From Amoebophrya sp. A120 (lineage: Eukaryota; Protista; Dinoflagellata), in assembly GCA_905178155.1 (NCBI GenBank), contig CAJINV010000009.1, positions 2,953,373 to 3,017,372 of the forward strand: 64,000 bases of DNA, read 5' to 3'. The translations under genes were made by a program, and so were the position numbers. Under the pieces are notes generated by a model. That model was not told the origin of the DNA, did no database searches, and saw only the letters and a program-made list of their open reading frames with translations. This document shows, one piece after another, positions 38,154 through 63,500 of the stretch (positions are counted from its first letter, which is position 1; the number at the start of each line of letters is the position of its first letter).

Positions 38154-38251
38154 GATGCTACATTCAGCAAGGAATTCATCCTACGCATGCTACATCGAAA
38201 AACTCTCGCTTCTTCGCCCGTGCTTCTCGATGCCGAATCTCCACTCTCGCT

Positions 38252-39763
38252 CTATCGCCTCGCCCTCCAAATAGATACAAGAGAAGACCACACCGACAGC
38301 TGAAGACAGATTCGACACTTATCTATATCAAATTTGAACAACTTTCCAGCGTGCATTACCACCAATCGGGCGTTCATTCCGAGATGTTGGAAAAGCAAAA
38401 ATTGCAAAAGCTGCAGGCGAGCTTCTTCTTGATTATGCTCACTAGGTGGCGCGTTTTGTTTGTTGCGCGCGACAGAAAAGACGTTTTGCACTTTCTGGAC
38501 TGATTTTTGTGCCCCCTCTACGGTGGATAGATCCACAAAGAACTTCTCTTGCTCGACCTGATGTTTCTTGGAATCTGATCTATTGCTCGTGAACCATGGC
38601 GGGTAGACGTAAAACGCGGACTTTCCCGAGTGTTCATCTTCCAACGATGCTAGCTGGCCGTGATCCTGCAGATACTTTCGCGGAAAAATGAAGAACCCCC
38701 TCACTTTCTGGTCGGTTTTGTCGTCGCGCCAGATCGCCAGAAGATAATCGGGACACCGCTCGGACGCACACTTCTTGGATCTGGTGACGTTTCGGGCGAT
38801 ATCTCGGCCTAAACCAAGATCTACACGGCGACCCGTACGCTTCTCGCTGTCCACGTCAACAGTACAAAATCTTGCACACAAGGTCCTCCCGTCCGCAAGC
38901 TCGTAGTGGGCTGTGCTACTGGTTTCAGCAGATCGCGGTCTCTGAACTGCAACGCCACACTCGCTTCGTAGGAACTCTATAGCCTGGTGTAAGATCTGCT
39001 GCAGCCCGATATCCGTTTCCGGAAAGAGAACGGTGCAGAACTCCTCTTCGCGCAACAACTGCGATTTTTGGCGGTGCTCTTCCAAGCACTTCGTCAGCCC
39101 CTTCTGGTCAAAAATTTCACACCGGTCCGCAAAACTTCTAGGAATCCGGAGCATGCGGCGTGCATTCTTTTGAAGTCTTTGGTTCTGTTCGCACTGGACC
39201 AGTAAATCTCCTGGGAAGTAAAAAAATCTTCCTTCCGAAGCCACCAGGAAGATCACGCCGGCGCAACCGGCGAGCCGCGGCCTTTGAAGAAAAAAGGAGG
39301 CCGAAGGTGAGTAAACATCTCTCATGGAGCGTAAGATGAGCGGACACCAAACGGCGTTGCCGCGTTCACCCTTGGGACGGAAGACAAGTTGACAGACTGC
39401 CCGCTTTGGTAGAATCTCGAAGTCGTATGATCCAGCCGCAAAGGACAGAAAGGTCTCTAGAGGTAGTTGTCTTTCTTGCATGTAGGACTTCCGCTGCTTC
39501 TTCTCGCAAGTTTTCCCGTAACCAAGAAAATCCGGAAACCCACGCCACCCACAAGCTCGATACGAAATATGAGGCGCACGGGGAATCATATGTTTCTGAC
39601 GCATCCCTGCTGCACACCACGCCGTCCATTCCCGCCACGACTGCAATCCGAGACTGTGCATCACTGTGCGAGCTTTGTGAAATGGCAGAAATCGATGAGG
39701 CATCGAGGGCTGCGTGGACGTTACTTCGGAAAGCAAGCGGCGGGAAGCAGACAGTATCCTCAT
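38252..39763 (-). CDS. Integrase-repeat plus MepB-like domain protein, paralog B1
   Basis: 503-aa ORF; FLPFHKAR...GWRGFPDFLG; GFFIFPRKYL...GKSAFYVYPPW. Confidence 0.8.
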   Translation of the reverse strand: MRILSASRRLLSEVTSTQPSMPHRFLPFHKARTVMHSLGLQSWREWTAWCAAGMRQKHMIPRAPHISYRACGWRGFPDFLGYGKTCEKKQRKSYMQERQLPLETFLSFAAGSYDFEILPKRAVCQLVFRPKGERGNAVWCPLILRSMRDVYSPSASFFLQRPRLAGCAGVIFLVASEGRFFYFPGDLLVQCEQNQRLQKNARRMLRIPRSFADRCEIFDQKGLTKCLEEHRQKSQLLREEEFCTVLFPETDIGLQQILHQAIEFLRSECGVAVQRPRSAETSSTAHYELADGRTLCARFCTVDVDSEKRTGRRVDLGLGRDIARNVTRSKKCASERCPDYLLAIWRDDKTDQKVRGFFIFPRKYLQDHGQLASLEDEHSGKSAFYVYPPWFTSNRSDSKKHQVEQEKFFVDLSTVEGAQKSVQKVQNVFSVARNKQNAPPSEHNQEEARLQLLQFLLFQHLGMNARLVVMHAGKLFKFDIDKCRICLQLSVWSSLVSIWRARR

Positions 39764-39972
39764 ATTTCCTCGTGGTCGTGCGGTTGAATCAATTCTAGTT
39801 TTACGAAGGTACGTACACTAGACCTAGCTACTTAATGAAGCACAATTCCCGCATGATTTGTGCTGTTTATCGGAATCGAAAAGTCGTATACTCTCTCGCG
39901 CTTTAGTTCTTAAAAGAACACCTTACCAAGATAGTACTCAAATCCTGTACTCAGAAGTTGGGTACGCCTAGG

Positions 39973-40203
39973 TCATTCTTCCAACATCTCGTCCCGAAGC
40001 ATCTCCTTGATCTGCTCGATCTTCTGGCTCGCAAAATCCAAATCTAGATTTTTCATCGCATTCACTGAACCTGTAAGGTTCGCTGCACCCGCGAACATGC
40101 CGTCATAAAACGTAGAAGCAGAACCATTTCCTGCGTCAGAGTCCTTCTGTGTCTCCACTCCGTAAATGCTGTCTTCATGGTATTTACAAAGTAGATTCCC
40201 GAC
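39973..40203 (-). pseudogene. Duplicated 3' fragment of the gene at 43781-44986
   Basis: GNLLCKYHEDSIYGVETQKD...ASTFYDGMFAGAANL...LDLDFASQKIEQIKEMLR matches the C-terminus of ORF 43781-44986; no 5' part is present. Confidence 0.82.
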
Positions 40204-40453
40204 GCGTGGTGCCAGAAGCGAAGGTCAAGGTCGTAAACAACTCCAAAGTAAAATGTTTTTTGACTTTGACATACGGAGAGACGTGGACTAGATCTTAATC
40301 TTGTCCTTCAAACAGTGATCTTGAGGATAAACCGCTTGGTTACATAGTCCCAAGAACTGGTTTGAGCCTGACACTGCTGAGATTCGCTAGGTTCACGAAG
40401 CGCTTAGACCGTTCAGTTTAGGTTGTTGTAGGTAGCAGGGTTCTCCTGTCTAT

Positions 40454-41893
40454 TCAGACTTCATCTTCATCCTGTTGCTCAGCATCACTGTCGTTCGGTT
40501 TCGGTTTATACTCCGAAAAAATTCTTTTTGCTCGCGCAACATTTTCTTCGATGTTGGCATCTGGTGCAAAGTCTAAAAAGAACTGCTGTTGCTCCTGCTT
40601 CTTGCGGATCACCTCTTTCCATGTTGGATTGGACCACGGTGGATAGGCGTAGATCGCTGTCTTTCCGGCGTTATTTCCCCTCCTGAGCACGCGCAGCGAC
40701 TTCAAATACGCCCGCGGGAAAATGAAGACACCCCTCAGAAGATTGCCGTCCTGCTCCGCGCGGCCGCCAGCCTCGTGCTGAGCGCTGTCTTGACACTCTG
40801 CAGAAGATCGGTGCCACCTCGCGATCGCAAAGAGAAAGTCCGGGCAGCGCGCCTCGTCGCATTTGCGCATCCGCTCGCCCCCGTTGGCAACGGTACTTCG
40901 ATGCAGCCCCAGATCCAACCGCACGTAGGTTTGGCAACGGTCCGACTCGCAGCTGCGGGCTAACATTCTCATGCCATCGATCAGAAAGTGCGCGTCCAAA
41001 GACGGAAAACTTGGTCGCTCGACGTTGCAGCCGCAGCGGTCGCGCAGGAACTGCACCACCTGGAGCAAGCTCTGCTGCAACGCCCCATCGCCCGCAGTGG
41101 TGTAAAATGCTCTTCCGAACTCTTCTTCGGCCAGAAGCTTCGCGGACTGACAGTGCTCCGCCAGCTGCTTTTGCAGGTCGTCGGAACTCGTGATCTCGTA
41201 GGGTTTTGCTGTCTCGACGTCTATGCGGATTGGCGCGTCGGCTCTCACTGTCGGGCGCCGGAGAGAATCCAAAAATGCGAAAGGAAAAAAGAATACTCGA
41301 TCAGCTGCCGTGATGACGAATATCATTCCGAATCCGGATCTAATTTTGGGCGCGTGGAAAAACAGCCAGCGGTCACGAACCTCTTCAACAGAACGGAGCA
41401 CCAGCGGACACCACTTGTTCTCCTCCCCTTTCGTTTCGTTCTGATTTTGCGTGGTCTGGCGATAGACAAACTGCGCGATGCTCCGATGCGGTAAGATCTG
41501 GAACTCGAACGGCCCACCGGACGTCCGCTCCAAAAACAGCTTCTTCGCGGCGTTGCATTGTCGCGGCGAGTCTTGCAAACGCGCATTTGCTTGGCGCTGC
41601 TTCCGTCGGAGTGCCCGCTCGATCGACGGCTTAGGCCCGGGCCGCTGCCTCGCATACCCGAGCCAGTCGGGATAATCCGTCCAACCGGTGTTCCTGTAGA
41701 ACAGTCTCGGATTACTTGGCACGTCAGAAGGCCGACAGCCACTTCTGTTCCACAACAGCCACTCGCGCCAGGACTTCAATCTCGACGCCCGAACTATGTC
41801 GCGCGCGTCCTGAAAGGGAAGGAACTCTTTCGGCCTTCTACCTCTGCTGACCTTAACAGCGCTGAGCCGGTTGGGAAGCGAAAACGCTAACAT
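40454..41893 (-). CDS. Integrase-repeat plus MepB-like domain protein, paralog A2
   Basis: ORF 40454-42100, first ATG at 41893; FLPFQDAR...GWTDYPDWLG; GVFIFPRAYL...GKTAIYAYPPW; closest to 36645-38153. Confidence 0.8.
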   Translation of the reverse strand: MLAFSLPNRLSAVKVSRGRRPKEFLPFQDARDIVRASRLKSWREWLLWNRSGCRPSDVPSNPRLFYRNTGWTDYPDWLGYARQRPGPKPSIERALRRKQRQANARLQDSPRQCNAAKKLFLERTSGGPFEFQILPHRSIAQFVYRQTTQNQNETKGEENKWCPLVLRSVEEVRDRWLFFHAPKIRSGFGMIFVITAADRVFFFPFAFLDSLRRPTVRADAPIRIDVETAKPYEITSSDDLQKQLAEHCQSAKLLAEEEFGRAFYTTAGDGALQQSLLQVVQFLRDRCGCNVERPSFPSLDAHFLIDGMRMLARSCESDRCQTYVRLDLGLHRSTVANGGERMRKCDEARCPDFLFAIARWHRSSAECQDSAQHEAGGRAEQDGNLLRGVFIFPRAYLKSLRVLRRGNNAGKTAIYAYPPWSNPTWKEVIRKKQEQQQFFLDFAPDANIEENVARAKRIFSEYKPKPNDSDAEQQDEDEV

Positions 41894-42203
41894 TTTGTCG
41901 ACTGACCAATACTCAGTACGAATGGCATTGCTTTGCAGAATGAAACTTCTTCTGATACAAGTACGATGGAGTGTCCGATCTCTCGGGTAGACCAACCTCC
42001 AAAATTCATCGTTTCCCTCGCAATTCGCAAATTCTCCCAGTGAAGTAGCACCTGCCAACGTAGCCAATCTAAGCTGCTCTCCCCTCCGCCTGCTGCACAA
42101 GTGGGCATTGAAGCAACATCCTAGAACACGCTGAGTCCAACTCCAACACAGAATCTACCAAAATCTGAATCTTCAGAATCTCTATGTATACCGTGATGCT
42201 AAC

Positions 42204-43565
42204 TCATGCTGCAACAAGAAGCGATGACGGTCTTTCACCGTGACTGTTCTCGGGAAAATCCTCTGACTCTAAAATTTTGTGCACCTTTGCAACAGATGCG
42301 GCTTTATCTGCTTCTGGAGACAAATCGATACAAAATTGCTCTTGCTCCAGTTTTCGTTGGCGGGAATCGCTTCGCACTGGTGTGGTCCAAGGTGGATAGA
42401 CGTAGAGACTTTGCCTTCCGCTCTGCTTCTCGTTATCTAGTTCAGATAGTCGGCCTTTTTCTTGTAGAAACCGCCGCGGAAAAATAAATAAGGCCCGCAG
42501 ACGAGCTTTCTCAGCTGCAAACGGGACACGAGCTGCAGCACCGTCGTCGTCAAATGCTTGCTCTTCTTCGTCGCGCCACAGAGTTACTATGTAGTCAGGA
42601 CAACGCTCTGCTGCGCAACTGCTGAATCCGTCGCGCGAGCTATTAAGCTCGCGCGGCAATCCAAGTGCCACTTTGCGACCGTTTCGGAAAGCCCGCGCGG
42701 TCGGTAAGCTGTTGCACCGGAAAACCAAAGTCTTTCCGCCAGCAGTTTCGTAGTGTGCGTCGGACGTTACCGAGGTAGGACGCTTGAGAGTCAAACGGCA
42801 CACTGTGCGGAAGAAGGCGACCGCTTGCTGTACGAGGGTGTTCAGCAAAACGTCGACGTGACCGGAGAAGAGAGTCGACGGAAGCTCAGTCTCGTGAAGG
42901 AGAGTCGCGCAGCTGTAGTGCTTTTCCAAACAGTCGTGCAACGCGGCATTGTCGAAGACTTCGTACTCTCGGGCCCGCTCCATCGGAACTCGGTGCAAGG
43001 CCCAGGCATTCTTGTGTTGGAAACACGAGTCCAAAAAATCAAACGGAAAGAAGAAGAAGCGCTTCTCTGCCACCAGGATGAACAGCACTCCTCTACCGAC
43101 GCGGCACCCCGGTGGGCGAACGTACAGATGCGATCTTTCGGTGTACTGGTGCGTCATCGACCTCAAAACCAAAGGGCACCACAAATCCTGCTGCGCATCC
43201 TCCTCCGTCCGATAAGCTACATGTGCGAGTGCGCGGTGGGGAAGCAAGTCAAATTGATACGGTAAATTCGCAGCGTGTGAAAGGAAAAGTTCCTTCGCGG
43301 GCAGTATTGAATTACTGGATCTGATGCTGGCCTCGCCTGTGTCGTGGCCACGAGTGACGGCTGCTCTTTTTCGATATCCCAGCCAGTCGGGAAAGTCACA
43401 CCAGCCACTGTTTTTGTAGTAATGGTTCGGAGCACTGGGAATATTCTTTGGTCGCTTTCCAGCTGCACACCAAGCCCGCCACGTTCGCAAATTCTTGAAA
43501 TTGTAGGCATGTATGATTTCGCGCGCCCTGTCGAAAGGCAGGAACTTTGGACGAGGTGGCCTCAT
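42204..43565 (-). CDS. Integrase-repeat plus MepB-like domain protein, paralog B2
   Basis: 453-aa ORF; FLPFDRAR...GWCDFPDWLG; LFIFPRRFL...GRQSLYVYPPW; closest to 38252-39763. Confidence 0.8.
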   Translation of the reverse strand: MRPPRPKFLPFDRAREIIHAYNFKNLRTWRAWCAAGKRPKNIPSAPNHYYKNSGWCDFPDWLGYRKRAAVTRGHDTGEASIRSSNSILPAKELFLSHAANLPYQFDLLPHRALAHVAYRTEEDAQQDLWCPLVLRSMTHQYTERSHLYVRPPGCRVGRGVLFILVAEKRFFFFPFDFLDSCFQHKNAWALHRVPMERAREYEVFDNAALHDCLEKHYSCATLLHETELPSTLFSGHVDVLLNTLVQQAVAFFRTVCRLTLKRPTSVTSDAHYETAGGKTLVFRCNSLPTARAFRNGRKVALGLPRELNSSRDGFSSCAAERCPDYIVTLWRDEEEQAFDDDGAAARVPFAAEKARLRALFIFPRRFLQEKGRLSELDNEKQSGRQSLYVYPPWTTPVRSDSRQRKLEQEQFCIDLSPEADKAASVAKVHKILESEDFPENSHGERPSSLLVAA

Positions 43566-45541: not shown

Positions 45542-48500
45542 CTAGGATCCCTCCGCCGGTGCCGGAGCCTCCGCCGCCGCCGCATCTCCCCCGCCACCCT
45601 CTGCGGCTGGAGCCGCCACCGCCACCGCCTCCCCCTCGGCTGGCGCTGCTGCCGCGGGTTCTTCCGCTTTTTTCTCCTCACTTTCTGCTGCAGCTGGTTC
45701 TTCCTTTTTCCCCACTTCCGCTGCGGGTTCGTCTTTCTTTTCCTCATCTGCAGGCTTGTCTTCTTTCTTACCGGCAGCTTCTTTTGCAGGAGGAGCTTTT
45801 CTATCACCTCCATCCTTCTTACTATCCGCAGTCTCACCCTCCGCCCCCTCTTCCAAAGCCTTCTTGTCCGCTTCTGCAGCCATACTTGCCGAGGAGGCTA
45901 AGACCACCACCATCAACACCAATAACCCGATCCCGACACACGCGCCGCCGATGATCGCCATGTTGCCTTTTTTCTTCTTTTCTTCCGCTGTGGTGTTTGT
46001 CGCGTTAGTGGTGTTGGTGGAGGAAGTAGAGTCTGACTCTTGATCTCCACCGCCACCAGCTGCTGCTTTGCCACCGTTCTTGCCGGAACCACCTCCTCCA
46101 CCGCCACCTTTCGGCCCTGGCGACGTGGGCACCACTATGGTATTCGAGTTCACCATGGTGAGTCCATAACTCGTTAAACTCGCAACGTTCGCCACCTCCA
46201 CGGATATATCAACTGTAAAAATGTCTGGGTCTGGAAGATTCTGACACTTGTCATGCACGTTTTGCATGAGCCATGGTGTCTGTGATGCATACCCTAGCAA
46301 TACAGATTTTTTGAGGGCTTCTTGATGCCTATTCCGCATGACAAATGCCTTCTCAGCGTAGCAAAAATTGCATTCCCTTTGGTACTCATGCAATACAAAT
46401 TCTCTTGGGAATCCAAATGCAGCATCACAACTTGCATTCTTCCAGACATTTTTGCACTTGGTAGGATATGTCCGCGAGCAAACTGGTATACGCTGCGCTT
46501 CCTATTACAGTGAAAAATGCCCCCACCCCAGAACTTGCGAGCATTTGTATTGCAAACCTTTCCTATGGAAACACACCCCGTCTTGCATATCTCAGCTATG
46601 GCCCCCTCAAAACGTAAGTTTTCAACTCGTAAGTGCGCTACCCAACTATTTTGCATAAAATTACCACTTTTTTTTTGGTTTTTCATTTTTCGCAAAAATA
46701 GCTATTTTCGATGAAAAATTGCAAAATGTCGACTCCGATGATTTCGCTAAAAGTAGCTACTTTACAAAAATAGCTTGATTCATTTTTAGCATGCTCAGCT
46801 CATCATTAGCTAGGACCCGGGCCGGCGACGGAGAGGTGAGGAGACGGACACACCAGGCTGCTCCGGGAAGCGCGTGTGGGAAATGGAGATCATGTTCTTG
46901 CAGCTGCTCCTTGAAGCGAGTATGGGAAACGGTGATCATTTTTTCGCTCTATGATTTGCAACAAAGTAGCTTTTATTCGGAGCCAGGATCTACAAGTAGT
47001 TTGACGAGCATTCACTTCTTCTACACATTCGCGCACGTGCATGCTGTGAGCCTTTGGCATGGAAAACAGGGCCGCTCGACGCCTTCGCGAATACAAAAAC
47101 AGGCTTCTTTTTGTGCTTGTGGGCGTCTATAAGTGACGCAGAGGTGAGATATTTGGGATGCCCACGCCCCCGCTACGAAGTGAAAGCGTCCAGCTCCGAA
47201 CAAAAGCTGTGGCGCAAGTCATAGACCTCCGGAGCCCGACAAAGCCAGTTTCTTGCTGATTTGGACGGCCTGAACCACAGCGGCAACAGTGGCGCCATCG
47301 TCGAAAAACCTCACAAATGCCCACCAATGGAAGACCGTTTTGCATCGTAAAAAGTGCCCCTTTGCATCTGAAGAAGCTGCTTCTACAGCTTCTGGGCGTC
47401 GGTCGGAAGCTAAAAAAAGGCAAAAAACCTGCCCGCGCATGCACAAAGTAAGGCACTTCATCTGCTGCAGCTGCGCCCGCATCTGCAAGGGATCTAGGAT
47501 CTCGAACCACCTCGCAGGACCAGCCGCAAGGGCCCCGGGTGTCGAAATTGGTCCTCCACAGGCAAGGCGTTTTTGATGCTTTTTTCCAATGATAGCCGTC
47601 CACAACTCGCCTCCTGCCGACCAATGCTGTGCCCTCGCTGTTCGACAAACATTGGGCCGGGCGCATCGCGGCTCGGCGCAACCGGCCCGGCGGCATTGTG
47701 CGCAACACCACCACCGAGCCGGGGCGGGCGCTTGCCGCCCCAATGCGCAACCCCCGGCCGCGCGCCCGGCCCGGGCGCAGCCCGCAGCGCGCCGCCAAGC
47801 CTGTGGCGCCCGCCCGCCCGTGTGCGAGGCGCTTGGCCGGTCTGCCGGGCGAGTGGCCCGAGCTGGCGGCAGGGGGCGACATGTGCCGGCACTGTCCCGC
47901 ACTCGCCGCCCGTTGAGCAGCGGCGGGGCTAGGCAGCCGGCCGAGCAAAGCAAAGGAGGCGAGAACAACCCACGCCCCGTCAATTCATGTCCGCTTCGCG
48001 CAGACAGAGCGCACAAAAAACCAACGGCAGAGCCTGGTGGCCGCCCGGCCCTTTGCAGTGGTTCTGCCTTTGCGGGGGGGGGGGATCGATTCGAGCCGGC
48101 CGGCGGCCGGCGACAAGCGTGCAAGAAGCAAGGCCGGCCGCGCGCACTAGATAGCTTGCTGAATGGCACCAAGTGGCCCCCCCAAGGGCAGGCTGGGAGC
48201 GAGTGAGGCGGGGGCCGGCTGGCCGGGCAACAGGGAAGCGCGCGGGGCCGGGGCAGGCTAGCAGGCCGGCGGGGGGCTGCGCCGGCCGGCTTCGTTCCTT
48301 CCGACACCGACAGACGGGGGGTCGGCTTGCGCGGGAACCTTCGCAGAGACAAGGGCCACCACCAAGCGGGCGCCCGCGCGCCCCGTCTGAAGGCTGGCAA
48401 AAAACCGCCGGCCGCGCGGGGGGGTCGGCCCCTGCTTGCATAGCAATTCGCGGCCCGTGCGTGGCTCCTCCATTATTTGCCAACAAGTGGGGCGCCCGCT

Positions 48501-51500
48501 AACGTCGCAAAGCATTTCCATAGGGAGCGCGCTCGCTATTTGTAAAAAAAAATTTACAACAGGCCGCGCGCTGTTTGTGCGAACACTTTTACCGGGCGCG
48601 CGCTACTTGTAAAATTTTTTTTACAAATAGACCAGCCGGGCCGGAGGGCCCATGGCAAACGGGCCGGCGCCGCGGCCTTTCCCATATACACCCATCGGGC
48701 GGGTGGGGCGGAGGGGGGGCGGCAAGCCGTTGGCCGACCTCTGGCCCGCCCGGGGTGGTGGTAAGGTGGGGGCTAACGCGCTTGGGGAAGGATTTGTAGT
48801 TCCGTGGGCCGAATGCTTGAAGCCGCGCGCTACCTGCGTGCGCCCACATGAGGCCGCCCCCCCTCCATGTGCATGCTGCCCTTCCCCGACTAGACGCGGG
48901 GCCAGAGGGCCCAGTCACGGCCCTCTGCCTGCCGTCGCCCGCGGGCCGTCTGAATGTGCCGCGCGTGTTTGTTTTTCTTTGGCCCGGTTTTTCCGCCTTT
49001 CGCGCCATTTGTTGTGGGGGCGGGCGACATGCGCCGCGCCCACACACAGGTGCCCCACAAGCTACAGGCAGCGGGCCCCGCTCCCCCAACTACAGACGGG
49101 GGCGGGCCCACACGCAGGAGACGATGCACCGGCCCAAGCCTGGCCAGGCTCGCGCCCATGCATCGGCCCCGCGCCCCGCTTCCTAGCTGGGGCGGGCCAG
49201 CAGGGTGCGCCAGCGGCTTCGGCTATGCTTGCTTACGTAGAAGCCGTCCGGGGAAAGCGGGCGAGCTAGCTAGGCGGGCCCGCCGCGTTTCCGGTTGCGG
49301 GCTAGCAAGGCTAGGCAAGCTGGCCCACAAGCAAGCTAGCAGCTGGCGCCCCGACAGGTCTCCGCGCTGCCTGGGCCAGCTGCACGCACCCGCACGCATT
49401 TGGCCCGCCAGCGCCCCTCGGTGAGTCGGTGGGTTGGGCAACTACCGGGGGCGCCCGCCTAGGTGGGTGCGGCCGTCCGTCGGGGCAGCTGCTTTACGGC
49501 CCGCCCCCCCCCGTCGCTCGCCGCCCGGCCAATTGGTTCGCGTAGCTTGCCGGCCCGGCCCGGTAGGTTCACGCGCTCGAGCTCGGCCCGGCTCCGCTGT
49601 GGGCTTTGCCGAAATGCCTGTGGCCCGGCCGCCCAGCCACGCACCAGCGAGGGGGCCTGTCCGAAGCAGTAGCTTGGCGACCAGCTGCGCGGGCTGGGGG
49701 CGGCGCTTTCTATCTTCCCAGCGATGGACGGCCCACAACAACCCGCTGCAGTCGGCCCTGTGTGTCCCATGTTCGTTGCCCGCGCCGGCCCAGCAGCCGC
49801 TTCGCGCGGCCGGTCGGTGCGTGCTTTGGGCGGACCATCATGCGCGCCCGCAGGTAGCTGGCCCAAAATATTATGGAGCGCAGCTAGCAGGCCAGGACCG
49901 GAGTGGGTTCCCCGGCAGGCTGCGCGCATCTTGGTGCTGTGCCAACTGCACGGACCGCCCGCATTTTGCTGCCTCGCAGGCATGCAGCCCGGCGCGGCCA
50001 TTTCCGTGCGGCGCCCGCCCATTGGCCGCGTGGCCCCGATGCGTTGGCTTACAGCCACCCCGCCGGCCGCGCGAAGCGGGCCGGCGAGCTACGGGAGCCA
50101 ACCCCCTTCCGCTAGTATGTTAAAAATAAAAAACCAAACCACAGGTGGCCCACGCGCAGGCCCCCCGTTCCCAAAGAGTTCGCCGGCGCCGCGCTTCGCG
50201 GGCGTGCGTCGCTCCGCTACATGCGGCAAAACCTAGCGGGGCCGCCTTCCAGCTTGCTCTACGCAGCAAGCCGGCCGGCCCGGTAGCCGCTGGCTGCGCG
50301 TAAAATGGAAAGGCGCCAGCGATGGGGGCCGGCTTCGCGCGCCCCCCCCGCGTTCGAGAGCCTGGAGCCGGGAGGCCGCCTGGCTTTTGAACCGGGCTCA
50401 GGGTTCAGGGCTCAGAGGGCGCCGGCGCGCATGCAGATTGATGCTTGGGCCGGCCGCCCGCAGCGGGGTAGTAGCGAGCGCAGCGGCCCCATTTGGCCGG
50501 CAGGCCAGAATGCTTGCCGGTGGCCCAGCTCGGTCCGTGTTTCGCGGCGCTTTTTTTTCCCAGAATGCTCTGCGCCCCACGAGGAATCCGAGGGCCAGCT
50601 TTCGGCGTGCTATTCCTGATCCAAAAGCGGCGGGCCCAGCACCCTTGACGCCCCGCGCAGCAACCTGGCTAGCGGACAAAGAAACGCCAACGATATTGGG
50701 CGGGGGGGGGCTGGCCCACCGCCTGGGCGCCGTGCCTGCCATTACCTGCCGGCCCCCTGGCTGGGGGGGGCCGTATTTTGCCCCGCGGGCTCACGCGCTT
50801 GGCGGTAGCCGCATTCGCCTGCGCGCCTGCTCAAGCTGTTGTGGTTGGCCTGCAGGCTATGTCCGTGCGCGCGCGCGCCGGCGGGGGGGCCGGGTCACTG
50901 ACTTAACTTCACCTCGGACGCGGCGGGCCCACGCCGGCAAGCCCTCGCGCCCCTTGGGCCAGCTTGGCGCGCCCGCATGCCTGCGGCAAGCCGGGCAGCT
51001 ACATGGAGTGGGCCGGCCGGCTGCTCACAATGGGCGGCCAGTTGCTTGGCTGGGCAGGGTAGGTCGGTCCGCCGCGCGGGGCGGTGGCGTGAGTGTGTTG
51101 GGCCCGAATATTGGCGGGCCGCACAACGGAGGTCCCCCGCGCTATGTATTTGGGCCAGGTCCCCGCGCCTGCTGGAGGTCGCTGGCCGCTGTTGCACGGG
51201 GCCCCCACCTGGCCGGCCGCCTCTCAGCCCCCAACCTGCCTGGGTAGGCGGCGGGGCGCGCGCGGGCCGTTCGGGCACATGGGCCGAGTACTCGCGCCCC
51301 ACATGTAGCGGGCCAGGAGGGCGGCGCCGGCCTTGGGGGCATGTGGCCACGAGGGGCGGGGGACAGCGTGCGCCGGCAATTCGGCGACAACAGCTGGCCC
51401 CTTCGCTGTATTTGATGACGGGCCCACCCCTGATCGCAGGGGCCAGCCCTATCCGTCTGGCGGCCCAGCTAAGTGGCCCAGCGCGCCGCATGCGAGCGCC

Positions 51501-54500
51501 ACGCTTTTGGCTGGCCCCGCCATCCAACGCGGCAGCCGCTCCGCCCGCTGCGAGCGAGCGCCCCCCCGGCCCGTTGTGTGCCTGCATGTAGCTGGCCAAC
51601 CGGTTGCACGTAGGTGCCGCGGCCGCGAAGTATTGAAGCGCGGCGCGTGTGTCCAGTTCGCCAATTATGAGGCCACATCCGGGCAGCCGGGTGGCGGGCC
51701 AATAAGAGGGCGCCCGGCCGCTTGGGCTAGCCAAGGAAATGCGGCCCGCCCCAGCATTAGACTACCCGCCAAAGCCCGCCGGCAGATCCCAGCACCGCCT
51801 GGAACAGCTACGCGCCCGCCCCCCCGCATGTAGTTGGTGTGGGCCTCCCTCCCGTCCCAGCAGCGTCCGTCGGCGGGCAAGAAACAAAGAGCAGATGGCA
51901 AATCTGCCAAAGCGAGACCGCCTGCTATGCGGGCCGCCTTGCCTTCATACCGGGCCCGCCCATGATGAAGCCCGCCCGGGCCCCAGCTATGTGCCCAGGG
52001 CCAGGTGCGTGCGCCCACACGTGCGCGGCCCCCCCCCCTCGCAACTGCATGCAGGCAGCTGCGCCGCCAACTAGACGGGCCCGGCTCGCCATCCCTCTTC
52101 GCAGAGTTCGCGCAGCAACCATAGGGGCCCACATGAGGCCGGTCGGAATCGGCCACGCATCGCGTTGCCCGAGCCGACTGCGTGCGACGCATGTTGCTGG
52201 GTCGGCCGTCAGCTATAGGGGGCCGGCGCCCAGCTTGACGCCCGCGATGCGCGCCCGTGTTTCTGCGATTGCGCGCGCGAGCTCAACCGCAGAAGCATCT
52301 CACGGCCGCGATTTCTAATTTTTCGCGAGGTTTATGTTTGTCGTCGACAAACACAAATCTCGGGAAAGTTGGAGGCCCTCAACTCGTAAGTGCGCCCACC
52401 ACTAGAGAAAATTTGTGTGGAGCGCACTTACGAGTTGAGAAAAGTGCAGCACACCATCGGGGGTGCGATTGAAATGCTGCATTTTTCTCAACTCGTAAGT
52501 GCGCTCCACACAAATTGTCGAGAGCGCAGCGAGAAATTTCGCAACTTTTTCCAGAGCAAATCCAGAAAAGGTTGCGAAATTTCTCAGAAATAGAAAAAAA
52601 GGGCGGAAATGGGCGCCGGCGGGCAGGCTCCGCCCGGTTGTGTGTGGTTGCGTGCATGTGGCTCGTCCATGTAGCTCACCCTCCAGACCACACCAGCCAA
52701 GGCTAGGAAGGCGCCGACCTCCTAACTATAGCTGAAGGACGGACCAACAACATGCGGCGCACCGTGGTGGGATCAACGGTTGGGAGGCGCGGCCGGTTCA
52801 AACAGGCTCCATGTGTGCCCCCATAGTAAGCTGCTGCGCGAACTCCGTAAAGAGGGGCGTTGGGGCCCGGTGCCTCTAGTTCGGGGGGCGGCTTGTTGCG
52901 TGCAGCTGCCGGGCCACAACAAGCGAACGGCGCGCGGCCACACCTGCCTGGCTTCGAGCCGAACAAATGGGGGCCGGGCGGTTTTCGTCGTACTTGGGCG
53001 CGCCAGGCCGGGCGGTGCGCGGCCCGTGTGGCAGGCTGGCGCGCTTGGGCAAATTTCTTCACCGAATCGCCTCGCGTTCTTTCTGGCGCTGGTGGCAAAA
53101 TGCACGGGATGGCGCGTAGTTGCTCCAGGCGATTTGGGAAATTGCCGACGGGCCGGGACGGGTAGGTTGGTAGCTACTGCGTGGCTGGGCGGGTTGCGTT
53201 TGGCGGGCCCCCGCGGCCGGGCGCATTGTTATTAGCAGGCCCGCCGCCCGGCTTAACGGATGCATGTGGCCACTATAGTTGGCCAACCGAAGGAACATAC
53301 GCAACGAGCCGCGGCCGGCGGGCATTTCGTACCCGCGGCGCGCCACCTACGTGAGGCCGGCTGGGAAAAGACAACCAGGCGCGCAACGCGCGGGCCGGTC
53401 GCAAGGGGCGGGTGGGGCGGCTGCCAAGCCGGGGGGGCCATCCAAAACAACGCGCGGCGCACGCGGCTGGGCCATGCAACTGGCCCGCCAGGTGCATGCA
53501 GCTGGCCCCTACGATTAGTTGCGGGCCCGTCCAATCCAAACTGTGGACGAGGGGCCAGGCGCTGTCGCCGACATGCAGGCGCATGTTGCTTAGCGTAGCC
53601 CATCACGGTCATGCGCCTATTGAAGCAGGGGCCCTGCTACCTTGGTGCCGCGAGTTAGTCAGGACTGGGCCCTTGTGGCGGGGTGGCCCGCGAGCGCGCC
53701 GCCGCTTGCCCAGGAGAGGGGCCGACTGGGGTGGGGGGCCCATGCTCCGGCAACGCGGCTAGCGACCCCCACCGGGCCGGCGCGGGGGCCTGCGGCAAAC
53801 AGCGCGACAGGCTTTCGCAGCGCGGTCCAGCTATATTAGGACCCCACTCACACCACCGCCCCACGCTATGGGCCTGCCCTGCCCAGCCAACCAGCCGCCC
53901 GCCGTGAGTAGCTGGCCGCCCTGTTGCAGGCGTGCGGGAGCGCCAACCAAGCTGGCCCAAGCGCTGCGCCGCAAGGGCTTGCCGGCTTGGGCAGGCTGCC
54001 TGCGCCGGGGGTAAATTCAGTGAGTCGGGCCCCCCGCCGGCGCGCGCGCGCACGGAGCGGACGCAGCTTGCACGCAGCCCGGCTGCTGCTGCAGCAGCTA
54101 GCTCGCCAGCAGGCGCGCTGGCGCATCCATGCGGCTACTTCAAAGCGCGGGAGCCCGCTGGCCAAATTGCGCCAGCAACAAACATGCGGGCTATGGCCAT
54201 GGGGACTGCAAGCCACGGGATGCTTGCGCCAGAGTGGGCCGGCCCGCCCCGTGCCGCTGGTGTTCGTTGGTGCGCTAGGTTGTTCCATCGATGGAGTCGC
54301 ATTGGCGGCGTGCCCACCGCCTTTGGATAGCTACTCAGGGGGGAGGAACGCCGGCGCAGGGCCAAAAAAATCGCCGCGAAACACGGACCGAGCTGGGCCA
54401 CCGGCAAGCATTCTCGCCTGCCGGCCAAATGGGGCCGCTGCGCTAGCTGCTAACCCGCTGCAGGCGGCCGGCCCAAGCAACAAGCAAGCTGCATGCGCGC

Positions 54501-57500
54501 CGGCGCCCACTTGGGCAAGTTGGGAACCCTGAACCCGGCCCAAAAGCCAGGCGGCCTCTTGGCTCCAGGCTCTGTCTCGAACGCGGGGGGGGGGCGCGCG
54601 AAGCTGGCCCCCATCGCTGGCGCCGTACGTTCCATTTTACGCGCAGCCAGCGGCTACCGGGCCGGCCGGCTTGCTGCGTAGAGCAAGCTGGATGGCGGCC
54701 CCGCTCGGTTTTGCCGCATGCAGCTGAGCGACGCACGCGAAGCGCGGCGCCGGCGGACTCTTTGGGAGCGGAGGGCCTGCGCGTGGGCCGCCTGTGGTTT
54801 GGCCTTTTCTTTTTTATCATACTAGCGGAAGGGGGGTGGCTCCTGTAGCTCGCCGGCCCGCTTCGCGCGGCCGGCGGGGTGGCTATGTGCCAACGCATCG
54901 GGGCCACGCGGCCAATGGGCGGGCGCCGCACGGAAATGGCCGCGCCGGGCTGCATGCCTGCGAGGCAGCAAAATGCTGGCGGTCCGTGCAGTTGGCACAG
55001 CACCAAGATGCGCGCAGCTTGCTTGCAGGGGAACTCACTCCGGGCCTGGCCTGCTAGCTGCGCTCCGTAATATTTTGGGCCAGCTACCTGCGGGCGCGCA
55101 TGATGGTCCGTCCAAAGCATTCACAGACCGGCCGCGCGAAATGGCTGCCGGGCCGGCGCGGGCAACATGGGACAGGGCCGGCTGCAGCGGGTTGTTGTGG
55201 GCCGTCCATCGCCGGGAAGATAGAAAGCGCCGCCCCCTAGCCCGCGCAGCTGGTCGCCAAACTACTTCGGGCAGGCCCCCTCGCTGGTGGTTGGGCGGCC
55301 GGGCCACAGGCATTTCGGCAAAGCCCATAGCGGAGCCGGGCCGGGCTCGAGCGCGTGAACCTACCGGGCCGGGCCGGCAAGCTACGCGAACCAATTGGCC
55401 GGGCGGCGACAGGGGGGCCGGGCCGCAAAGCAGCGGACCCGACGGCCGCACCAACCTAGGCGGGCGCCCCCGGTAGCTGCCCGGCCCGCCGATTCACCGA
55501 GGGGCGCTGGCGGACCAACTGTGTGCGCGCGCGTGCAGCTGGCCCAGGCAACGCGGAGAACTGTCGGGGCGCCAGCTGCTAGCTTGCTTGTGGGCCAGCT
55601 TGCCTAGCCTTGCTAGCCCGCAACCGGAAACGCGGCGGGCCCGCCTAGCCCGCTCGCCCGCTTTCCCCGGGCGGCTTCTATGTAAGCAAGCATAGCCGGT
55701 GGCGCACCTTGCTGGCCCGCCCCAGCTAGGAAGCCAGCGGGGCGCGCGGCCGATGCATGGGCGCGAGCCTGGCCAGGCTTGGGCCGGTGCGTCGTCTACT
55801 GTGTGTGGGCCCGCCCCCGTTTGTAGTTGGGGGAGCGGGGCCCGCAGTGTGTAGCTTGTGGGGCAGCTGTGTGTGGGCGCGGCGCATGTCGCCCGCCCCC
55901 GCAACAAATGGCGCGAAAGGCGGAAAAGCCGGGCCAAAAACAAACACGCGCGGCACTCACATGTAGACGGCCCGCGGGCGACGGCAGGCAGAGGGCCGTA
56001 GTTGGGCCCTCTGGCCCCGCGTCTAGTCGGGGAAGGGCAGCACATAGAGGGGAGGCGGCTTCATGTGGGCGCACGCAGGTAGCAGCTTCAAGCACGTGGG
56101 CCACGCAACTACAAATCCCCAAGCGCGTTGGCCCCCACCTTACCACCACCCCGGACCAGAGGTCGGCCACCGGCTTGCCGCCCCCCCTCCGCCCCACCCG
56201 CCCGATGGGTGTATATGGGAAAGGCCGCGGCGCCGGCCCGTTTCTTTGCCATTGGCCCTCCGGCCCGGCTGGTCTATTTGTAAAAAAAATTTTACAAGTA
56301 GCGCGCGCCCGGTAAAAGTGTTCGCACAAACAGCGCGCGGCCTGTTGTAAAATTTTTTTTACAAATAGCGAGCGCGCTCCCTATGGAAGTGTTTTGCCAC
56401 GTTAGCGGGCGCCCCACTTGTTGGGAAATAATGTATGGAGGAGCCACGCACGGGCCGCGAATTGCTTTGCAAGAAAGTAGGGCCCCGCCCCCCCGCGCGG
56501 CCGGCGTTTGCCAGCCTTCAGACGGGGCGGGCGCCGGCTTGGTGGTGGCCCTTGTCTCTGCGAAGGTTCCCGCGCAAGCCGACCCCCCCTCGTCTGTCGG
56601 TGTCGGAAGGAACGAAGCCGGCCGGCGCAGTCCTCCGCCGGCCTGCTAGCCTGCCCCGGCCCCGCGCGCTTCCTTGCCGCCCAGCCAACCTGCCAGCCGG
56701 CCCCCGCCTCGCCTGCTCCCAGCCTGCCCCGGCCTACAACTTGGGGGGTCCACTTGGTGCCATTCAGCAAACTATCCACCGCGCGCGGCCGGCCCTGCTT
56801 CTTGCTTGTCGCCGGCCGCCGGCCGGCTCGAATCGATCCCACCCCGCAAAGGCAGAACCATTGCCAAGGGCCGGGCGGCCACCAACCTCTGCCGTTTTTT
56901 GCATGCGCGCTCTGTCTGCGCGAAGCGGACACGGATGGACGGGGCGTGGGGTGTTCTCGCCTCCTTTGCTTTGCTTGAGTGATCGGCTAGCTACCTAGCC
57001 CCGCCGGCCGCTGCTCAACGGGCGGCGGGCGCGGGACAATGCCGGCACATGTCGCCCCCCGCCGCCAGCTCGGGCCACTCGCCCGGCAGACCGGCCAAGC
57101 GCCTTGCACACGGGCGGGCGGGCGCCAAAGGCTTGGCGGTGTGCTGCGGGCTGCGCCCGAGCCGGGCGCGCGGCCGGGGGTTGCGCATTGGGGCGGCAAG
57201 CGCCCGCCCCGGCTCGGTGGTGGCGTTGCGCACAATGCCGGCGGGCCGATTGCGCCGAGCCGCGAGGCGCCCGGCCCAATGTTTGCCGCACGTCGAGGGC
57301 ACAACATTGGTCGAAAGGAGGCGAGCTGTGGACGGCTATCAATGGAAAAAAGCATCGCAAATGCCTTGCCTGTGGCGGACCAATTTGGACACCCAGGGCA
57401 CTTGCGCCTGGTCCCGAGGGGTGGCTCTAGATCCTAGATCCCTTGAAGATGCAGACGCAGCTGCAGCGGATGAAGCTCCTTACTTTGTGCATGCGCAGGC

Positions 57501-60500
57501 AGCTTTTTTGCCTTTTTTTAGCTTCCGACCGATGCCAAGAAGCTGGAAAAGCAGCTTCTTCAGATGCAGAGTGGCACTTTTTACGATGCAAAATGGTCTT
57601 CCATTGATGAGCATTTGTGACGTTTTTCGACAGTGGCGCCATTGTTGCCGCTGTGATTCAGGCCGTCCAAACCAACAAGAGGGCGTCTTTGTCGGGCTCC
57701 GGAAGTCTATGACTTGCAATACGGCTTTTGTTCGGGGCTGGATATTTTCACTTCGTAGCGGGGGGGCGGGCATCCCAAATATCTCGCTTTTGCATCACCT
57801 ATAGACACCCAGAAGCCTCTTTCTGTATTCGTGAAGGCGTCGAGCGACCCTATTCCACATGCCAAAGGCACACAGCAGGCACGCACGCGCGCGACTATGT
57901 AGAAGAAGCGAACGCTCAGACTACTTGTAAATCCGGGCGCCGAATGCAAGCTACTTCATTGCAAATCATAGAGCGAGAAAATGATCTCCGTTTCCCATAC
58001 TCGCTTCAAGGAGCAGCTGCAAGAACATGATCTCCATTTCCCACACGCGCTTCCCGGAGCAGCCTGGTGTGTCCGTCTCCTCACCTCTCCGTCGCCGGCC
58101 CGGGTCCTAGCTAATGATGAGCTGAGCATGCTAAAAATGAATCAAGCTATTTTTGTAAAGTAGCTACTTTTAGTGAAATCATCGGAGTCGACGTTTTGCA
58201 ATTTTTCATCGAAAGTAGCTACTTTTGCGAAAAATGAAAAACCAAAAAAAAAGTGGTAATTTTATGCAAAAAAGTTGGGTAGCGCACTTACGAGTTGAAA
58301 ACTTACGTTTTGAGGGGGCCATATCAGCACCACAAATTTTCCAAACTGAATAGCTCAAATTTGTGTTGCAAAGGAGCCCAACAGCAGCCGGATCTCTTAT
58401 GCAAAAGACACCTTGCGCACCTAGATTCTGCACCAGAAAGGCTCGCAATCCTTTCATGCATCAAGACAAAAAGCTTTTATTTGGAAACTTTGCATGAGAA
58501 ACTTTTGTAACTTCCGGGGTGGGGGCATTTTTCATTGCAGTACTACCGTCGTCCAGTTTTGTGACCGCTTGCGACGCGGAGCTCGTCGACATCCAAGCGG
58601 TGTTTAAGGCTGCGGATTGGGCGGACGTGGCCTGGATGCCAAACTCGACGTAGACTCTCGCGTTAGTAGTCGATCCAGATGACTCGGTAGACGATTTGGC
58701 TGTCTTGCGGAGAAGCTGCACGGCAGAGAGAATCGGTCGCTGGTCTTTCGGTCCTCGACGTAGTTCAGCATTGATACTGTTTTGCTTTTGGACGACGTGA
58801 TTTCTACTATTACTTTCTTCCTCATACCGCAGCACCCTGGTGCTTGTGTTTCTTCTCTTCTTTCCCGCCGCTGCGGGTGAACCACGAACATCTTCCCCTT
58901 TTTCCAGAAACGAAGCCGATGACCCTCCGTCCGCGGATATCTCCGAAATAAAAGCCGCTGCGGCGGAAGAACTAGTAGGGCTCCCAACGCTCCACGCTAA
59001 ATTCAATGACACAACTTGATCCTCGGTTAAATCACTAACCCCGCCCTCGTCCTGGAACCACTTCACAATCCCAGTCCGCAGCGCGTTCTTGAACCTATGG
59101 ATTGCAAAAATGTCTGGGTCTGGATCTGGAAGATTGTCATGCTAAATCCGAATCATGCAAAAATCTGTGTTGCATGAGTGCCAAAAGCTGTCCACTTTCG
59201 ACCAAGGAAGTTGGGAGGGAGTTTCTCATGCAGGATAGGCATGAAAGAGACCTCACAGACTCTGTCATGCTAGGTCCTGCATTCCAGACCTCAAGGGTCC
59301 TGGAAAACCTGCATGACAAGTTTACACTCTTCCAGACCCAGACACTTTTGCATTTGATAGAACCCTGCGTCAGACAAAACCGCTTGCAAATCGCCCTGCG
59401 CCGAGCCGGAGCCGCTATTCGCCAAATCCAACCCAAGGTCGACTTTCCGCAACTGGACGTCTTGCCTCGCTTGAGTGTGCTTCTTGATCACTAAGTTCTC
59501 AATACCCGCGGCCGCCACTTCATCCTGCTCGACGTGAACCAAAGCGGAATACTCCCCCTCGTCGTCGTCCACATGCTTCCAAATGTCATCAACCGCCTGC
59601 TTCTGCTCATCCGAGTTCGTTTGGATTTCGAAATGAACATCCAGCGTTTCGTCCTTTTTTGTCGCGTTGTAATCGGTGAGGACGAAAATGAGAACCTGAT
59701 TTTCCTCCAAATGCAGACTATCAAATGCAAAAATGTCTGGGGCTGGGAGATTCTGAGACTTGTCACGCACGTTTTGCATGAGCCATGATGTCTGTGATGC
59801 ATGCCGTAGCATCACAGATTTTTCGGGGGGTTCTTAATGCCTATTTCGCATGACAAATGCCCTATCCGCGTAGCAAAAATTGCATTCCCTTTGCTACTCA
59901 TGCAATACAAATTTTTTTGGAATCCAAATGCAGCATCACAAGTTGCATTCTTCCACCAGACCCAGACATTTTTGCATTTGATACAGACTGTCGTCCGTGA
60001 GTTTCATGTTGGTGTAGTCAACCACGCCCTTTTTGATCGCTTCTTCAAACGTAATGTTGTGCGCCGCAACAGTGACGTTCTCGTCGCTTGGTGCTGTTTC
60101 GAGGAACTGATGATGTTGCAATTTGCCAAGGCGCCTCGATGTTGTTTTCGCCAATAAGCTGCTGAGCGAAGATGAGTCACTTTCCGTCAGTTCCAACTCT
60201 ACCTCGAAGCCCCCGGAAACCTCGGATTTGGTGGGCGACGGACTGGGGGACGGGCTTGGCGATGGGGATGGGGATGCTGGTGTTGGAGATACTGGTGCTG
60301 GTGTTGGCGCCGCTGTTGTAGTCGTCGAGGTTGTACTTGTTGTGGTTGTAGTGGGCAAAACCGGATAGAGCTTCAAGTTCAAACTAGTAATATTCGCCAG
60401 ATCCACTTCGTACTGTTCCAAATCGACCAACGCCCCGTACTCGCTACTACTCAAATCCGCTACCATGTTCCAGATTTCTTCCACTTTCTCCGCCTGCCGC

Positions 60501-63500
60501 ACGGTCAACGACTGTTCATTCATCAGACTGCTGTCGATCTCAAAGGTAACGGTAATTCTCGGCTCAGAAATAGTGCTGGCGTCCGACTCGTTGACGTGTA
60601 AATTCCTGACTTGTTGCTCGGTCAGTTTCAAATCAACTTCTACTATCTTGTCGTTCGTGAAGCTAAAAACGCCTTTCTTCATGGCGTCCTGCAAAGCCGG
60701 GTCGTAGAGAACGTGCTCCGCGATGTGGCCAGGACCGGCGGATACTTTTTGAAAAAACGACGACGATGATGATGTACTAACAACAACCTCCGCCATCAAC
60801 ATCTCGAACTGTTTCATCTGCAACAAATGCACGCAATAGGTTTTGTCACTACTCACTTCGTACGAAGCGTCCACACACGATTCGCACTTCTGCGCGTCTT
60901 GCGCCGGACAATCTACCCCCTTCGCGCCGACCCCGAACCCGCACTGGCAGACGTTTTCGTTGCACCGCCCCTGCGGATCGCTGGTACTCTCGTGATACCC
61001 CGCGTCACAGTTGCCGCAAAGCTCCGTGTTGTGCACCGTGCAATTCTTTCCCGCCGCGGCGATTCCGTGGTTGCAGGTACAGATGTTGACTTCACACACA
61101 TCAACATTCAAGTGGTACCCGGCGAAACACGAGCTGCAGATCTCCGCGTGGTCCCCCGTACACGCGGCGCCGGTCGCGGGCACGCCGTTGGTGCATTGAC
61201 AGATAAGGACGGTGGAAGTCGTGGATGTCGTCGATGTCGTTGTCGAGGTGGTTGTCGTCGCCGTACACACTTTGCTCCCCGCGACCATCTCGTACTCGTC
61301 GGCGCACACGGTGCAGATTTCCATCTGGTCGCCGGTGCAAGAAGTCCCGGTCGCCGGCTGGCCGTGGGCGCACGTACACAGGTTGTTCAAACACTCGCCG
61401 GCAGTTGTGCCCTGTCCTGTTCCTAAATGGAATCCCGCATTATGCATTGCAAATATGTCTGGGTCTGGAAGAATGCAACTTGTGATGCTGCATTTGGATT
61501 CCAAAAAAATCTGTATTGCAGGAAGGGCAAAAGAGGTGGTCTCCTTGCTACGCGGAGGGGGCATTTCTCATGCAGTACGGGCATCAGAAAGCCGTCGCAA
61601 TATCTGTGATGCTAGGGCATGCATCACAGACATCGCCGGTGATGCAAAATGCGCATTACAAACTTCCAGACCCAGACATATTTGTAACCCATACGCATCA
61701 CAGCTTTCGCACTTCTCCGGCGTCGGGCTCGCGTCGCACTCCGTGCCGGTTATCAGGTGCAAAAACGTCTGGGTCTGAATGAATGCAGAACTTTGTCATG
61801 CATCTTTTGGATCGCGCAAATGGTCTCTAATGCACGCAAAAGCATTACAGATTTTGCACAGGCCTCCATTTGATGCCTAATCCGCATGAGAAATTCCCTA
61901 TTTGCGTAGCAACAAATGGCCAGCTCTGGGCGTTCACGCAATACAAGTTTTTGCCTATTCCAGAATCGGCATCACAAGTTGCAACCTTCCAGACCCAGAC
62001 AACATATTTGCATTTGATACCGGTCTTCGGCGTGCCGTTGGCGCAGGCGCAGGAAGCGGAGCTGTCGAGAGCGGGCGGTGTTGTGGTGGTTGTCCCTGCT
62101 GGTGCTGCCGTCGTTGCATAAGCCACGCAATGCGAACTCGCGCTGTCTAGGTAGTGGCCACTGTCACAGTGCACGCACTTCTCCTCCAGGTTGTTCGTAC
62201 ACTCTGTGCCGGCCGCCGGAGTCCCGTAGGCGCAGGTGCAAATTGGTGATGATGCTCCCACTCCGCCAGTCGTGTTACCATTCCCGCTGGTTGAACTACT
62301 AGCAACACACGTCATACCACCCCCAACATCCAGCTCGAACCCGGCGTTGCACTGCGCACACTTTTCCGTGTCAGTATCCCCGCAGTCCGTTCCCGTTGCG
62401 GGTGTGCCGTTGGTGCAAGTGCAGTGATCGGTCTTCAACTCGGTTGAAGATGATTCTCTACTGGAATAAATGGAAGACGACCCCGCATGACCGTCGAGAT
62501 GACTTTCGTTCTCTTCCAAAAGAGACATCGAAGAGACCGCGGCCTGTTGTGCAGCGGGGGTTGTAGTACTCGAGCTGGTGCTAGTCGTCGTTGAGGTTGT
62601 CAACACCGCCTTGTGCTTCTCGTCCTGGGAACAGTCATGCACCACCTCCGCCAAAAGCTCGTGCCGGAAGATTTTTTCCATGCAGGAGTCGTAAAAGGCG
62701 TTCGCGTTTGCGCAACAGGGATCTACTCCCGACGTAGAACTAGTAGTTGTACACTGCCCACCCGTTCCTTTCCCGCTGTTGTACCTCTGCTGGCAGGTCT
62801 CGCATGGAGAGAAAAAAGTTTGCCAAAGTCACTAACTTGCAGGCTTTGCATTACAAATTTTTTCAGCGTCGCAACTTCTCCTTGTATTGCAGAAACACTA
62901 GGGAAGTCCATTATGAAGTTTGGCTGTGATGCATTTTTACGCATGACAGAAAAATTTGTATTGCAAAAATGCGCATGAGTGATCGTGACGCACTTTTTTT
63001 GTTTGATATCTCGACCGGCATGCTCACTCCGTTCCAGTTCTTGGTTTCGTAATCTGCTTCCGGCAAATCGTAACACGTTTCCACGAACTCTTTACACGCG
63101 GCGAGACAGTGGGTCGCGTTGGCGTTTACCGTGGTAGTGTCCCCGCTGAATAAATCCGTCACCGGGTCGATCTGCGACATGTGCCAGCATTTTTCCCAGA
63201 TTTTCTCCTCCCTCCGGAACTCGCAATGCTCGCAGTCGGAGCACTTGAAAAACCCGTGTTCCGGTGTATCCGTCTTGCTCTTGTGGCAGTTCCCCCCCAT
63301 AGCAGTGGTGTCGTCGGCCAGGGTCTTCGGTTTGCACCGGTAGCCCTGGTCGAAACGGGCGGGGTCCATGCGCCCGTCCTCCAGGTAGTCGCAGGGGCTG
63401 GTGGTGGCGGAGGCGGGGGGAGGTGTAGTAGCAGACTGTGCATGATGCGACTGTTCAACAACGGCGGAAGCAGTGGGGACCGTTGCGGTAGCGTTTAGCA

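Follow-up and report, generated by a model that had tools for sequence, protein, structure and literature searches.

The 11.7-kb palindrome found in Amoebophrya sp. A120 is, with high confidence, a single non-coding DNA transposon of the terminal-inverted-repeat (foldback) kind, and three further copies of the 17-mer that marks its ends stand at its axis. The window, by which we mean the whole stretch of 64,000 nucleotides analyzed here (contig CAJINV010000009.1, positions 2,953,373 to 3,017,372, forward strand), contains the entire element (Table 1). Its tips match each other at 51 of 51 and at 99 of 100 terminal nucleotides, the terminal 14 of 14 included, and the 5-bp target duplication that surrounds it is perfect; pairs matching at 14/14 arose in none of 100 shuffles. 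Because this duplication and the TAT...ATA termini are found at the outer ends only, the 11.7 kb inserted as one unit. Terminal inverted repeats, a target duplication, and very long repeats without coding capacity, i.e., the hallmarks of foldback transposons, are all present. The tandem repeats that classic FB and Tetris elements carry inside their inverted repeats are not, as the arms hold only two short repeats (periods 13 and 46, ~2 copies each) and no tandem array.

Table 1. Features of the palindromic element, its centre, and its surroundings (window coordinates).
Feature	Position	Strand	Remarks
Host gene	45542..61564	-	five predicted exons; element in predicted third intron
Introner-type MITE split by the element	46503..58542	.	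46503-46596 plus 58329-58542; 308 bp when closed
Target-site duplication, left copy	46592..46596	+	5 bp; same direct copy at 58324-58328
Whole element	46597..58323	.	11,727 bp, TAT...ATA; non-coding, GC-rich foldback
Outer left arm, younger stratum	46597..50557	+	mirrors 54364-58323
Left subterminal 17-mer	46622..46638	+	25 nt from tip
Inner left arm, older stratum	50558..52230	+	mirrors 52710-54363
Hairpin A	52321..52367	.	folds, z -7.1
Central 17-mer 1	52379..52395	+	alternative stem possible with 52422-52438
Central palindrome	52407..52519	.	45-bp arms around a 23-nt spacer, on the element axis
Central 17-mers 2 and 3	52422-52438; 52488-52504	-; +	inside central palindrome, 49 nt apart
Hairpin B	52531..52585	.	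folds, z -8.3
Right arm	52710..58323	-	inner 52710-54363, outer 54364-58323
Right subterminal 17-mer	58282..58298	-	25 nt from tip
Target-site duplication, right copy	58324..58328	+	5 bp; matches left copy

The arms are stratified by age. Identity per column is 96% in the outer 408 bp and 86-91% from there to 50557/54364 (96%, 86%, and 91% in the three outer blocks), and it drops to 64% in the inner arms, where 78% of the aligned pairs match and a shuffled control gives 54%. The inner arms are colinear in 10 of 12 comparison windows starting at 50600-52250 (exceptions listed: 50600, 51950, and 52250). The ~180 bp beside the central stem (52231-52406 against 52520-52709) lie at shuffle level (51% versus 51%), in agreement with an earlier first-pass annotation, made from the letters alone, which had described the neighboring arm sequence as highly diverged. 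Mirror sums of 104921-104956 in the arms and 104926 in the centre place the central block on the axis of the palindrome, which may reasonably be traced to an old inverted duplication of a unit half as long. Smaller repeats were seen within the arms. An AT-rich hairpin of ~93 bp with TAT...ATA ends and no duplication stands at 48537-48629 and again at 56275-56367, mirrored in both arms within a block of 97% identity, and may represent a small insertion of some age or another cis site. A TAC...GTA pair at 48555-56349, considered as an inner element, was rejected as a by-product of an A-tract hairpin mirrored in both arms. Further, the left duplication followed by TAT, eight bases in all, is repeated within the left arm at 52209-52216, with a mirror copy near 52728-52735, probably by chance.

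The element splits a MITE of the introner type, which, once closed, has TAT...GTA ends and a 5-bp duplication with one mismatch; 74 contigs of short-read run X1 with loose ends or foreign flanks at 46503 identify this MITE as a high-copy repeat. An end rule that required TAY...RTA termini, a match at 10 or more of the 14 terminal bases, and a direct repeat of 5 bp returned 24 pairs in the window, including the whole palindrome and 21 short elements of 209-331 bp, against a mean of 2.5 pairs, none of them at 14/14, in 100 shuffles. Rules requiring a duplication of 4, 6, 7, or 8 bp found no short element in the window. The 21 short elements are spread between 124 and 62019, each with an exact 5-bp duplication, and at least four that were tested restore a reading frame when skipped. 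In silico, skipping four TA...TA inserts with one duplication copy each (the MITE/element composite and three other short elements) produces a stop-free frame of 1058 aa from 61564 to 45542; the long frames of the window are all on the minus strand. The 11.7-kb element thus entered a predicted intron through the end chemistry that the short elements use. Raw RNA run X9 held matches to the MITE with foreign flanks only, and the host gene was absent from that run.

Two other features of the window were recorded alongside. A second GC-rich insert of ~3.65 kb (7650-11304) is built of degenerate 46-bp palindromic tandem units. In the manner of a Helitron, it begins A|TC and closes on a GC hairpin and then CTAG|T; it seems to split another small MITE with imperfect ends (7501-11344). 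On the minus strand, 36645-43565 contains four intron-free genes in tandem, whose MepB-like Pfam matches range from weak to passing, and the one of them that was searched had a single distant relative, covering 13% of the gene.

Searches for coding content in the element were negative. Among the 77 frames of at least 90 aa that overlap it, the 75 remaining after two flank frames were left out had no Pfam match, and they include no transposase and no Rep/HUH or polymerase frame. The longest outer frame, of 273 aa, had no homologues, and the synonymous and non-synonymous counts were near neutral in all six frames of the gap-free block 47115-47927, which, given the lack of both Pfam match and homologues and these near-neutral counts, was rejected as a coding remnant. 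A 104-aa frame matched eight proteins with Ig-like AIR9 repeats by chance, through one short motif summed over the repeats. The 12 Rfam matches at E up to 1 were all far below gathering scores. The exact 17-mer was met at 3 viral and 75 metagenome loci, again by chance, as 0 of these 78 align to the element over more than 38 bases, and no relative of the element was found among viral or metagenome contigs. The available text of PMC7789003 describes no such element in Amoebophrya, and the accessible literature on inverted-dimer transposons does not mention an arrangement of this type.

The five exact copies of the 17-mer listed in Table 1 are the only ones in the window; none is expected, and none of 100 shuffles reached five. 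This recurrence was the starting observation of the first-pass annotation, and it holds at every place then given. A degenerate copy of the 17-mer core additionally stands before the left subterminal copy. Of all exact words of 10 bases or more, the first 400 bp and the centre have just one in common, the motif extended by one base, which points to a protein site and not to broad homology. The arms of the central palindrome (52407-52451 and 52475-52519) match at 43 of 45 positions, with mismatches at 52409 and 52444 and a longest perfect run of 34 bp; they had been called near-perfect, correctly, and 42 bp long, a slight undercount. The 291-nt centre folds with a z of -14.6, and the two flanking hairpins that had been proposed fold as well. 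Each 5.8-kb half had also been said to be bounded by its own inverted pair of motifs, and the geometry bears this out, the 49-nt gap between the central motifs being twice the 25-nt motif-to-tip distance minus one. The tips themselves do not. Past the central motifs, the adjoining 25 nt agree with the true tips at 3 of 25 positions and have no TA, and the end-rule scan of the window showed no central block framed by a TA...TA pair and a 5-bp duplication. The halves carry binding-site-like motifs but lack cleavable tips. A nested element at the centre was considered and rejected, since no TA...TA pair with a duplication was present there and the two pairs with one end in 52200-52750 had no terminal similarity.

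Short-read contigs provided a check of the assembly. At 80% likeness or more, 8 contigs from run X1 and 11 from run X2 matched 52040-52920; the two runs represent one sample, possibly the window's own source, and hence are not an independent occurrence, and we take both to be DNA runs because the non-coding element is evenly covered. They reproduce 52249-52436 and 52418-52512 without a difference and 52487-52920 with one, so the centre is not an assembly artefact. At a few places (46747-46932, 52247, and 52594), the contigs disagree with the window where the window's own arms or copies agree, and the repeat may have been homogenized slightly too far in the assembly. At the centre, contigs from X7 and X8 were absent (X8 has scattered short pieces of the left arm). 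The contigs, which were examined on two stretches of the window, contained neither a second insertion site nor an empty site.

Depth in X1, with the reservation that contig depth is a rough guide and not a true copy number, was 75-94 for window-type centre contigs, ~2x that of single-copy pieces (39-45), and amounts to ~3 copies of the core (50300-53740), while the outer arms (46903-47720) are represented by one contig each at single-copy depth (43.8 and 44.6). Terminal depth was 56.2, against ~56-60 expected for two ends, with eight arm differences in the contig. Outer arms at single depth beside a multiple core are not what a simple family of full-length copies would produce, and the other core copies apparently do not share this element's outer arms.

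Three contigs of single depth carry a diverged version of the centre, and from their depth and adjacency we infer that they are one copy, a paralogue rather than a second genotype. This copy departs from the window by 12 substitutions and 5 indel events in 52064-52235, by 8 substitutions and a 13-nt insertion in 52249-52447, and by 8 and 6 in 52490-52597; its left flank is ~88% alike, and past 52597 it is unalignable. The motifs at 52379 and 52422, read directly, are unchanged in it, as is, judging from the contig break points, the motif at 52488. Hairpin A has two changes, hairpin B has a single listed change, in the loop (52556), and the central stem has one change (52417). The left/right asymmetry of the window, with hairpin A to the left of the centre and B to its right, is retained. 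The chance that 16 substitutions over 349 nt would miss the 119 nt formed by motif 1 and 52418-52519 is 0.0013, and that of finding no change in the three 17-mers alone (51 of 349 nt) is 0.08, which is not significant; both values come from one diverged copy, three contigs, and one sample, and the contig builder could hide single changes in 52448-52486. The first-pass annotation had ventured that the centre is a maintained site, and the unchanged motifs of the diverged copy speak for that part of the claim.

On balance, we favor the reading that the three central motif copies are putative internal, non-cleaved sites for the same trans-acting transposase that would act at the ends, with an accessory or enhancer role. 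A history can be proposed along these lines. A half-length ancestor would have been duplicated tail to tail long ago, and the two inner ends would then have fused and lost their cleavable tips while keeping the 17-mer, such that only the outer ends were used. The outer 4 kb of the arms may have been made alike again later, by arm-to-arm conversion, and the 45-bp stem may have been kept near-perfect by template switching over its short spacer. The inner motifs would have persisted because a protein that sits on the axis probably assists in pairing the two distant ends. Precedents exist for some of these steps. Specifically, the available text of PMC8604942 reports that template switching homogenizes arms and can keep close inverted repeats perfect without selection, although such switching can explain the stem and not the match to ends 5.8 kb away; and secondary transposase-binding sites within long repeats are described for Galileo in the accessible part of PMC4079207. 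In phage Mu, according to the portion of PMC10052514 at hand, a strong gyrase site in the middle of a long transposon acts in cis and helps the ends pair. The Mu likeness is a functional analogy only, as the Mu site binds host gyrase and is unrelated to the Mu ends, whereas the centre described here repeats the end motif.

Among the alternatives, the one that fares best, though we consider it unlikely, is that the centre is a passenger, i.e., either a relic evolving neutrally or a small related element that was recently copied into the site, whose motifs would be identical through recent copying or conversion from the ends and whose stems would be due to template switching only. The central 480-bp block does differ in composition (GC of 46% versus 69-70%), with mirror homology confined to the 45-bp arms, its motifs at 52379 and 52422 point inward as they would in a miniature element, and conservation of the motifs alone falls short of significance. 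However, no central block is flanked by a TA...TA pair with a 5-bp duplication; the block sits exactly on the axis of the whole palindrome; and it is common to a copy whose flanks have drifted to ~88% or past alignment.

Rather less probable is that the centre is an origin from which the core is copied outward, either hairpin-primed or by a rolling mode with a nick at the motif hairpins, the terminal-repeat ends integrating some of the products only. The excess of centre and inner arms over the one pair of outer arms would fit such copying, as might the resemblance of the array of three motifs, able to switch between two stems, and its two side hairpins to the replication origins of single-strand elements. 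Against it, the copy numbers are read from contig depth with the reservation given above, the element has no Rep/HUH or polymerase frame, and hairpin-primed copying would equalize the inner arms, yet these are the most diverged.

We hold out little prospect for a role in RNA, in which the central stem would nucleate folding of a 12-kb intron so that its ends meet for splicing. The predicted intron is ~50x the 240-nt mean of A120 non-canonical introns, for which hairpin-guided joining has been proposed (both from the available text of PMC7789003). Yet the arms show no overall G-U strand bias (73 versus 64, p 0.49), two blocks lean opposite ways, and the identity with the terminal motif would be left unexplained.

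Least credible of all is the first-pass reading of the centre as a replicated hairpin-telomere junction, which a resolvase would cut into two hairpin-ended 5.8-kb monomers. The near-perfect central stem with bulges at its apex, the inverted motif pairs bounding the halves, and the relation of the 49-nt gap to the tip distance all agree with it, and in the accounts available, hairpin-telomere replicons (protelomerase TelN/TelA/ResT; poxvirus concatemer junctions) likewise have a palindrome at the axis of an inverted duplication. In protelomerase and poxvirus systems, each passage of a replicon through a hairpin restores exact mirror identity between its arms. In this element, it is the arms closest to the axis that have the lowest identity (64%), and the diverged copy inherits their asymmetry, which means that the centre is not an active telomere junction; moreover, the element is integrated in a host gene, with a target duplication confined to its outer ends, and is not a free linear replicon, and no resolvase-like match was present in the 33, 75, and 57 frames scanned in the window. 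The test that had been proposed, of conservation of the centre and of monomeric or hairpin forms, gave a split answer: the motif is conserved in the diverged copy, and the 8 and 11 contigs, which drop rare forms, contain no monomer or hairpin form, no fold-back joint, and no loose end at the motifs or anywhere between 52065 and 52596, the only loose ends being at 52064 and 52597. The model is thus largely refuted, and with it the idea that the centre is the resolution site of a linear replicon.

As a foldback transposon, the element resembles Tetris, Galileo, and FB, which, according to the accessible part of PMC4079207, are non-autonomous, with very long inverted repeats, a target duplication, inner copies of the end sequence, and few complete copies. 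It differs from them in its 5-bp duplication and in carrying its extra end motifs at the centre of the element and not in the outer domain of the repeats, and from Tetris, with repeats of up to 1,735 bp in that same source, in having arms that run 5.8 kb to the axis. A second comparison is with the introners of A120 itself, whose repeats are described in the available text of PMC7789003, from an analysis of introns of 40-1000 bp only, as starting with TAT, seven variable bases, and an A-run, with direct repeats of 3-5 nt. The repeat of the element also starts with TAT, and its 5-bp direct repeat falls within that range, but the A-run begins two bases further in than in the published pattern. 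The 21 short elements of the window are likewise of this kind and give it the introner signature of A120. Further, it is ~45x longer than these introners and is not itself a short intron, being nested in the 308-bp introner that carries the predicted intron ends. Third, TA...TA termini are shared with IS3EU and GingerRoot in the parts of PMC10045372 and PMC6839031 that we could draw on. We do not assign the element to these groups because the duplication, in it and in 21 of 21 short elements, is of 5 and not 6 bp; it also lacks a transposase, and its repeats are kilobases long, against 100-150 bp in those groups. A candidate partner that might mobilize it is the integrase-like terminal-repeat family that PMC12130899 (available text) reports from A120.

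Taken together, the known part of this element is its kind, a foldback transposon, and what appears to be new is the presence of extra end motifs at its exact middle. As a tentative proposal, which we consider possible rather than probable, it would represent a family of 12-kb foldback cut-and-paste elements of eukaryotes, in which a selected, transposase-bound centre on the axis, composed of three end motifs, a two-state cruciform, and two hairpins, brings the far-apart ends together or initiates copying of the core, following a Mu-like logic that reuses the element's own end motif, within the clan that writes Amoebophrya introns. The accounts available to us differ on the enzyme that mobilizes the numerous short TAT...ATA introners of this lineage: PMC7789003 argues against a general transposase, and PMC12130899 assigns many introners to terminal-repeat transposons. 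In this context, a 12-kb member with a clean 5-bp duplication indicates that the end chemistry of short introners also moves very long DNA, and the five identical 17-mers offer a ready bait for finding the binding protein. For the host, the in silico frame predicts, within a compact genome, an intron of 12 kb that is paired with itself over nearly its whole length. If the centre is indeed a site at which the ends are paired, it would constitute a new way for long eukaryotic transposons to work.
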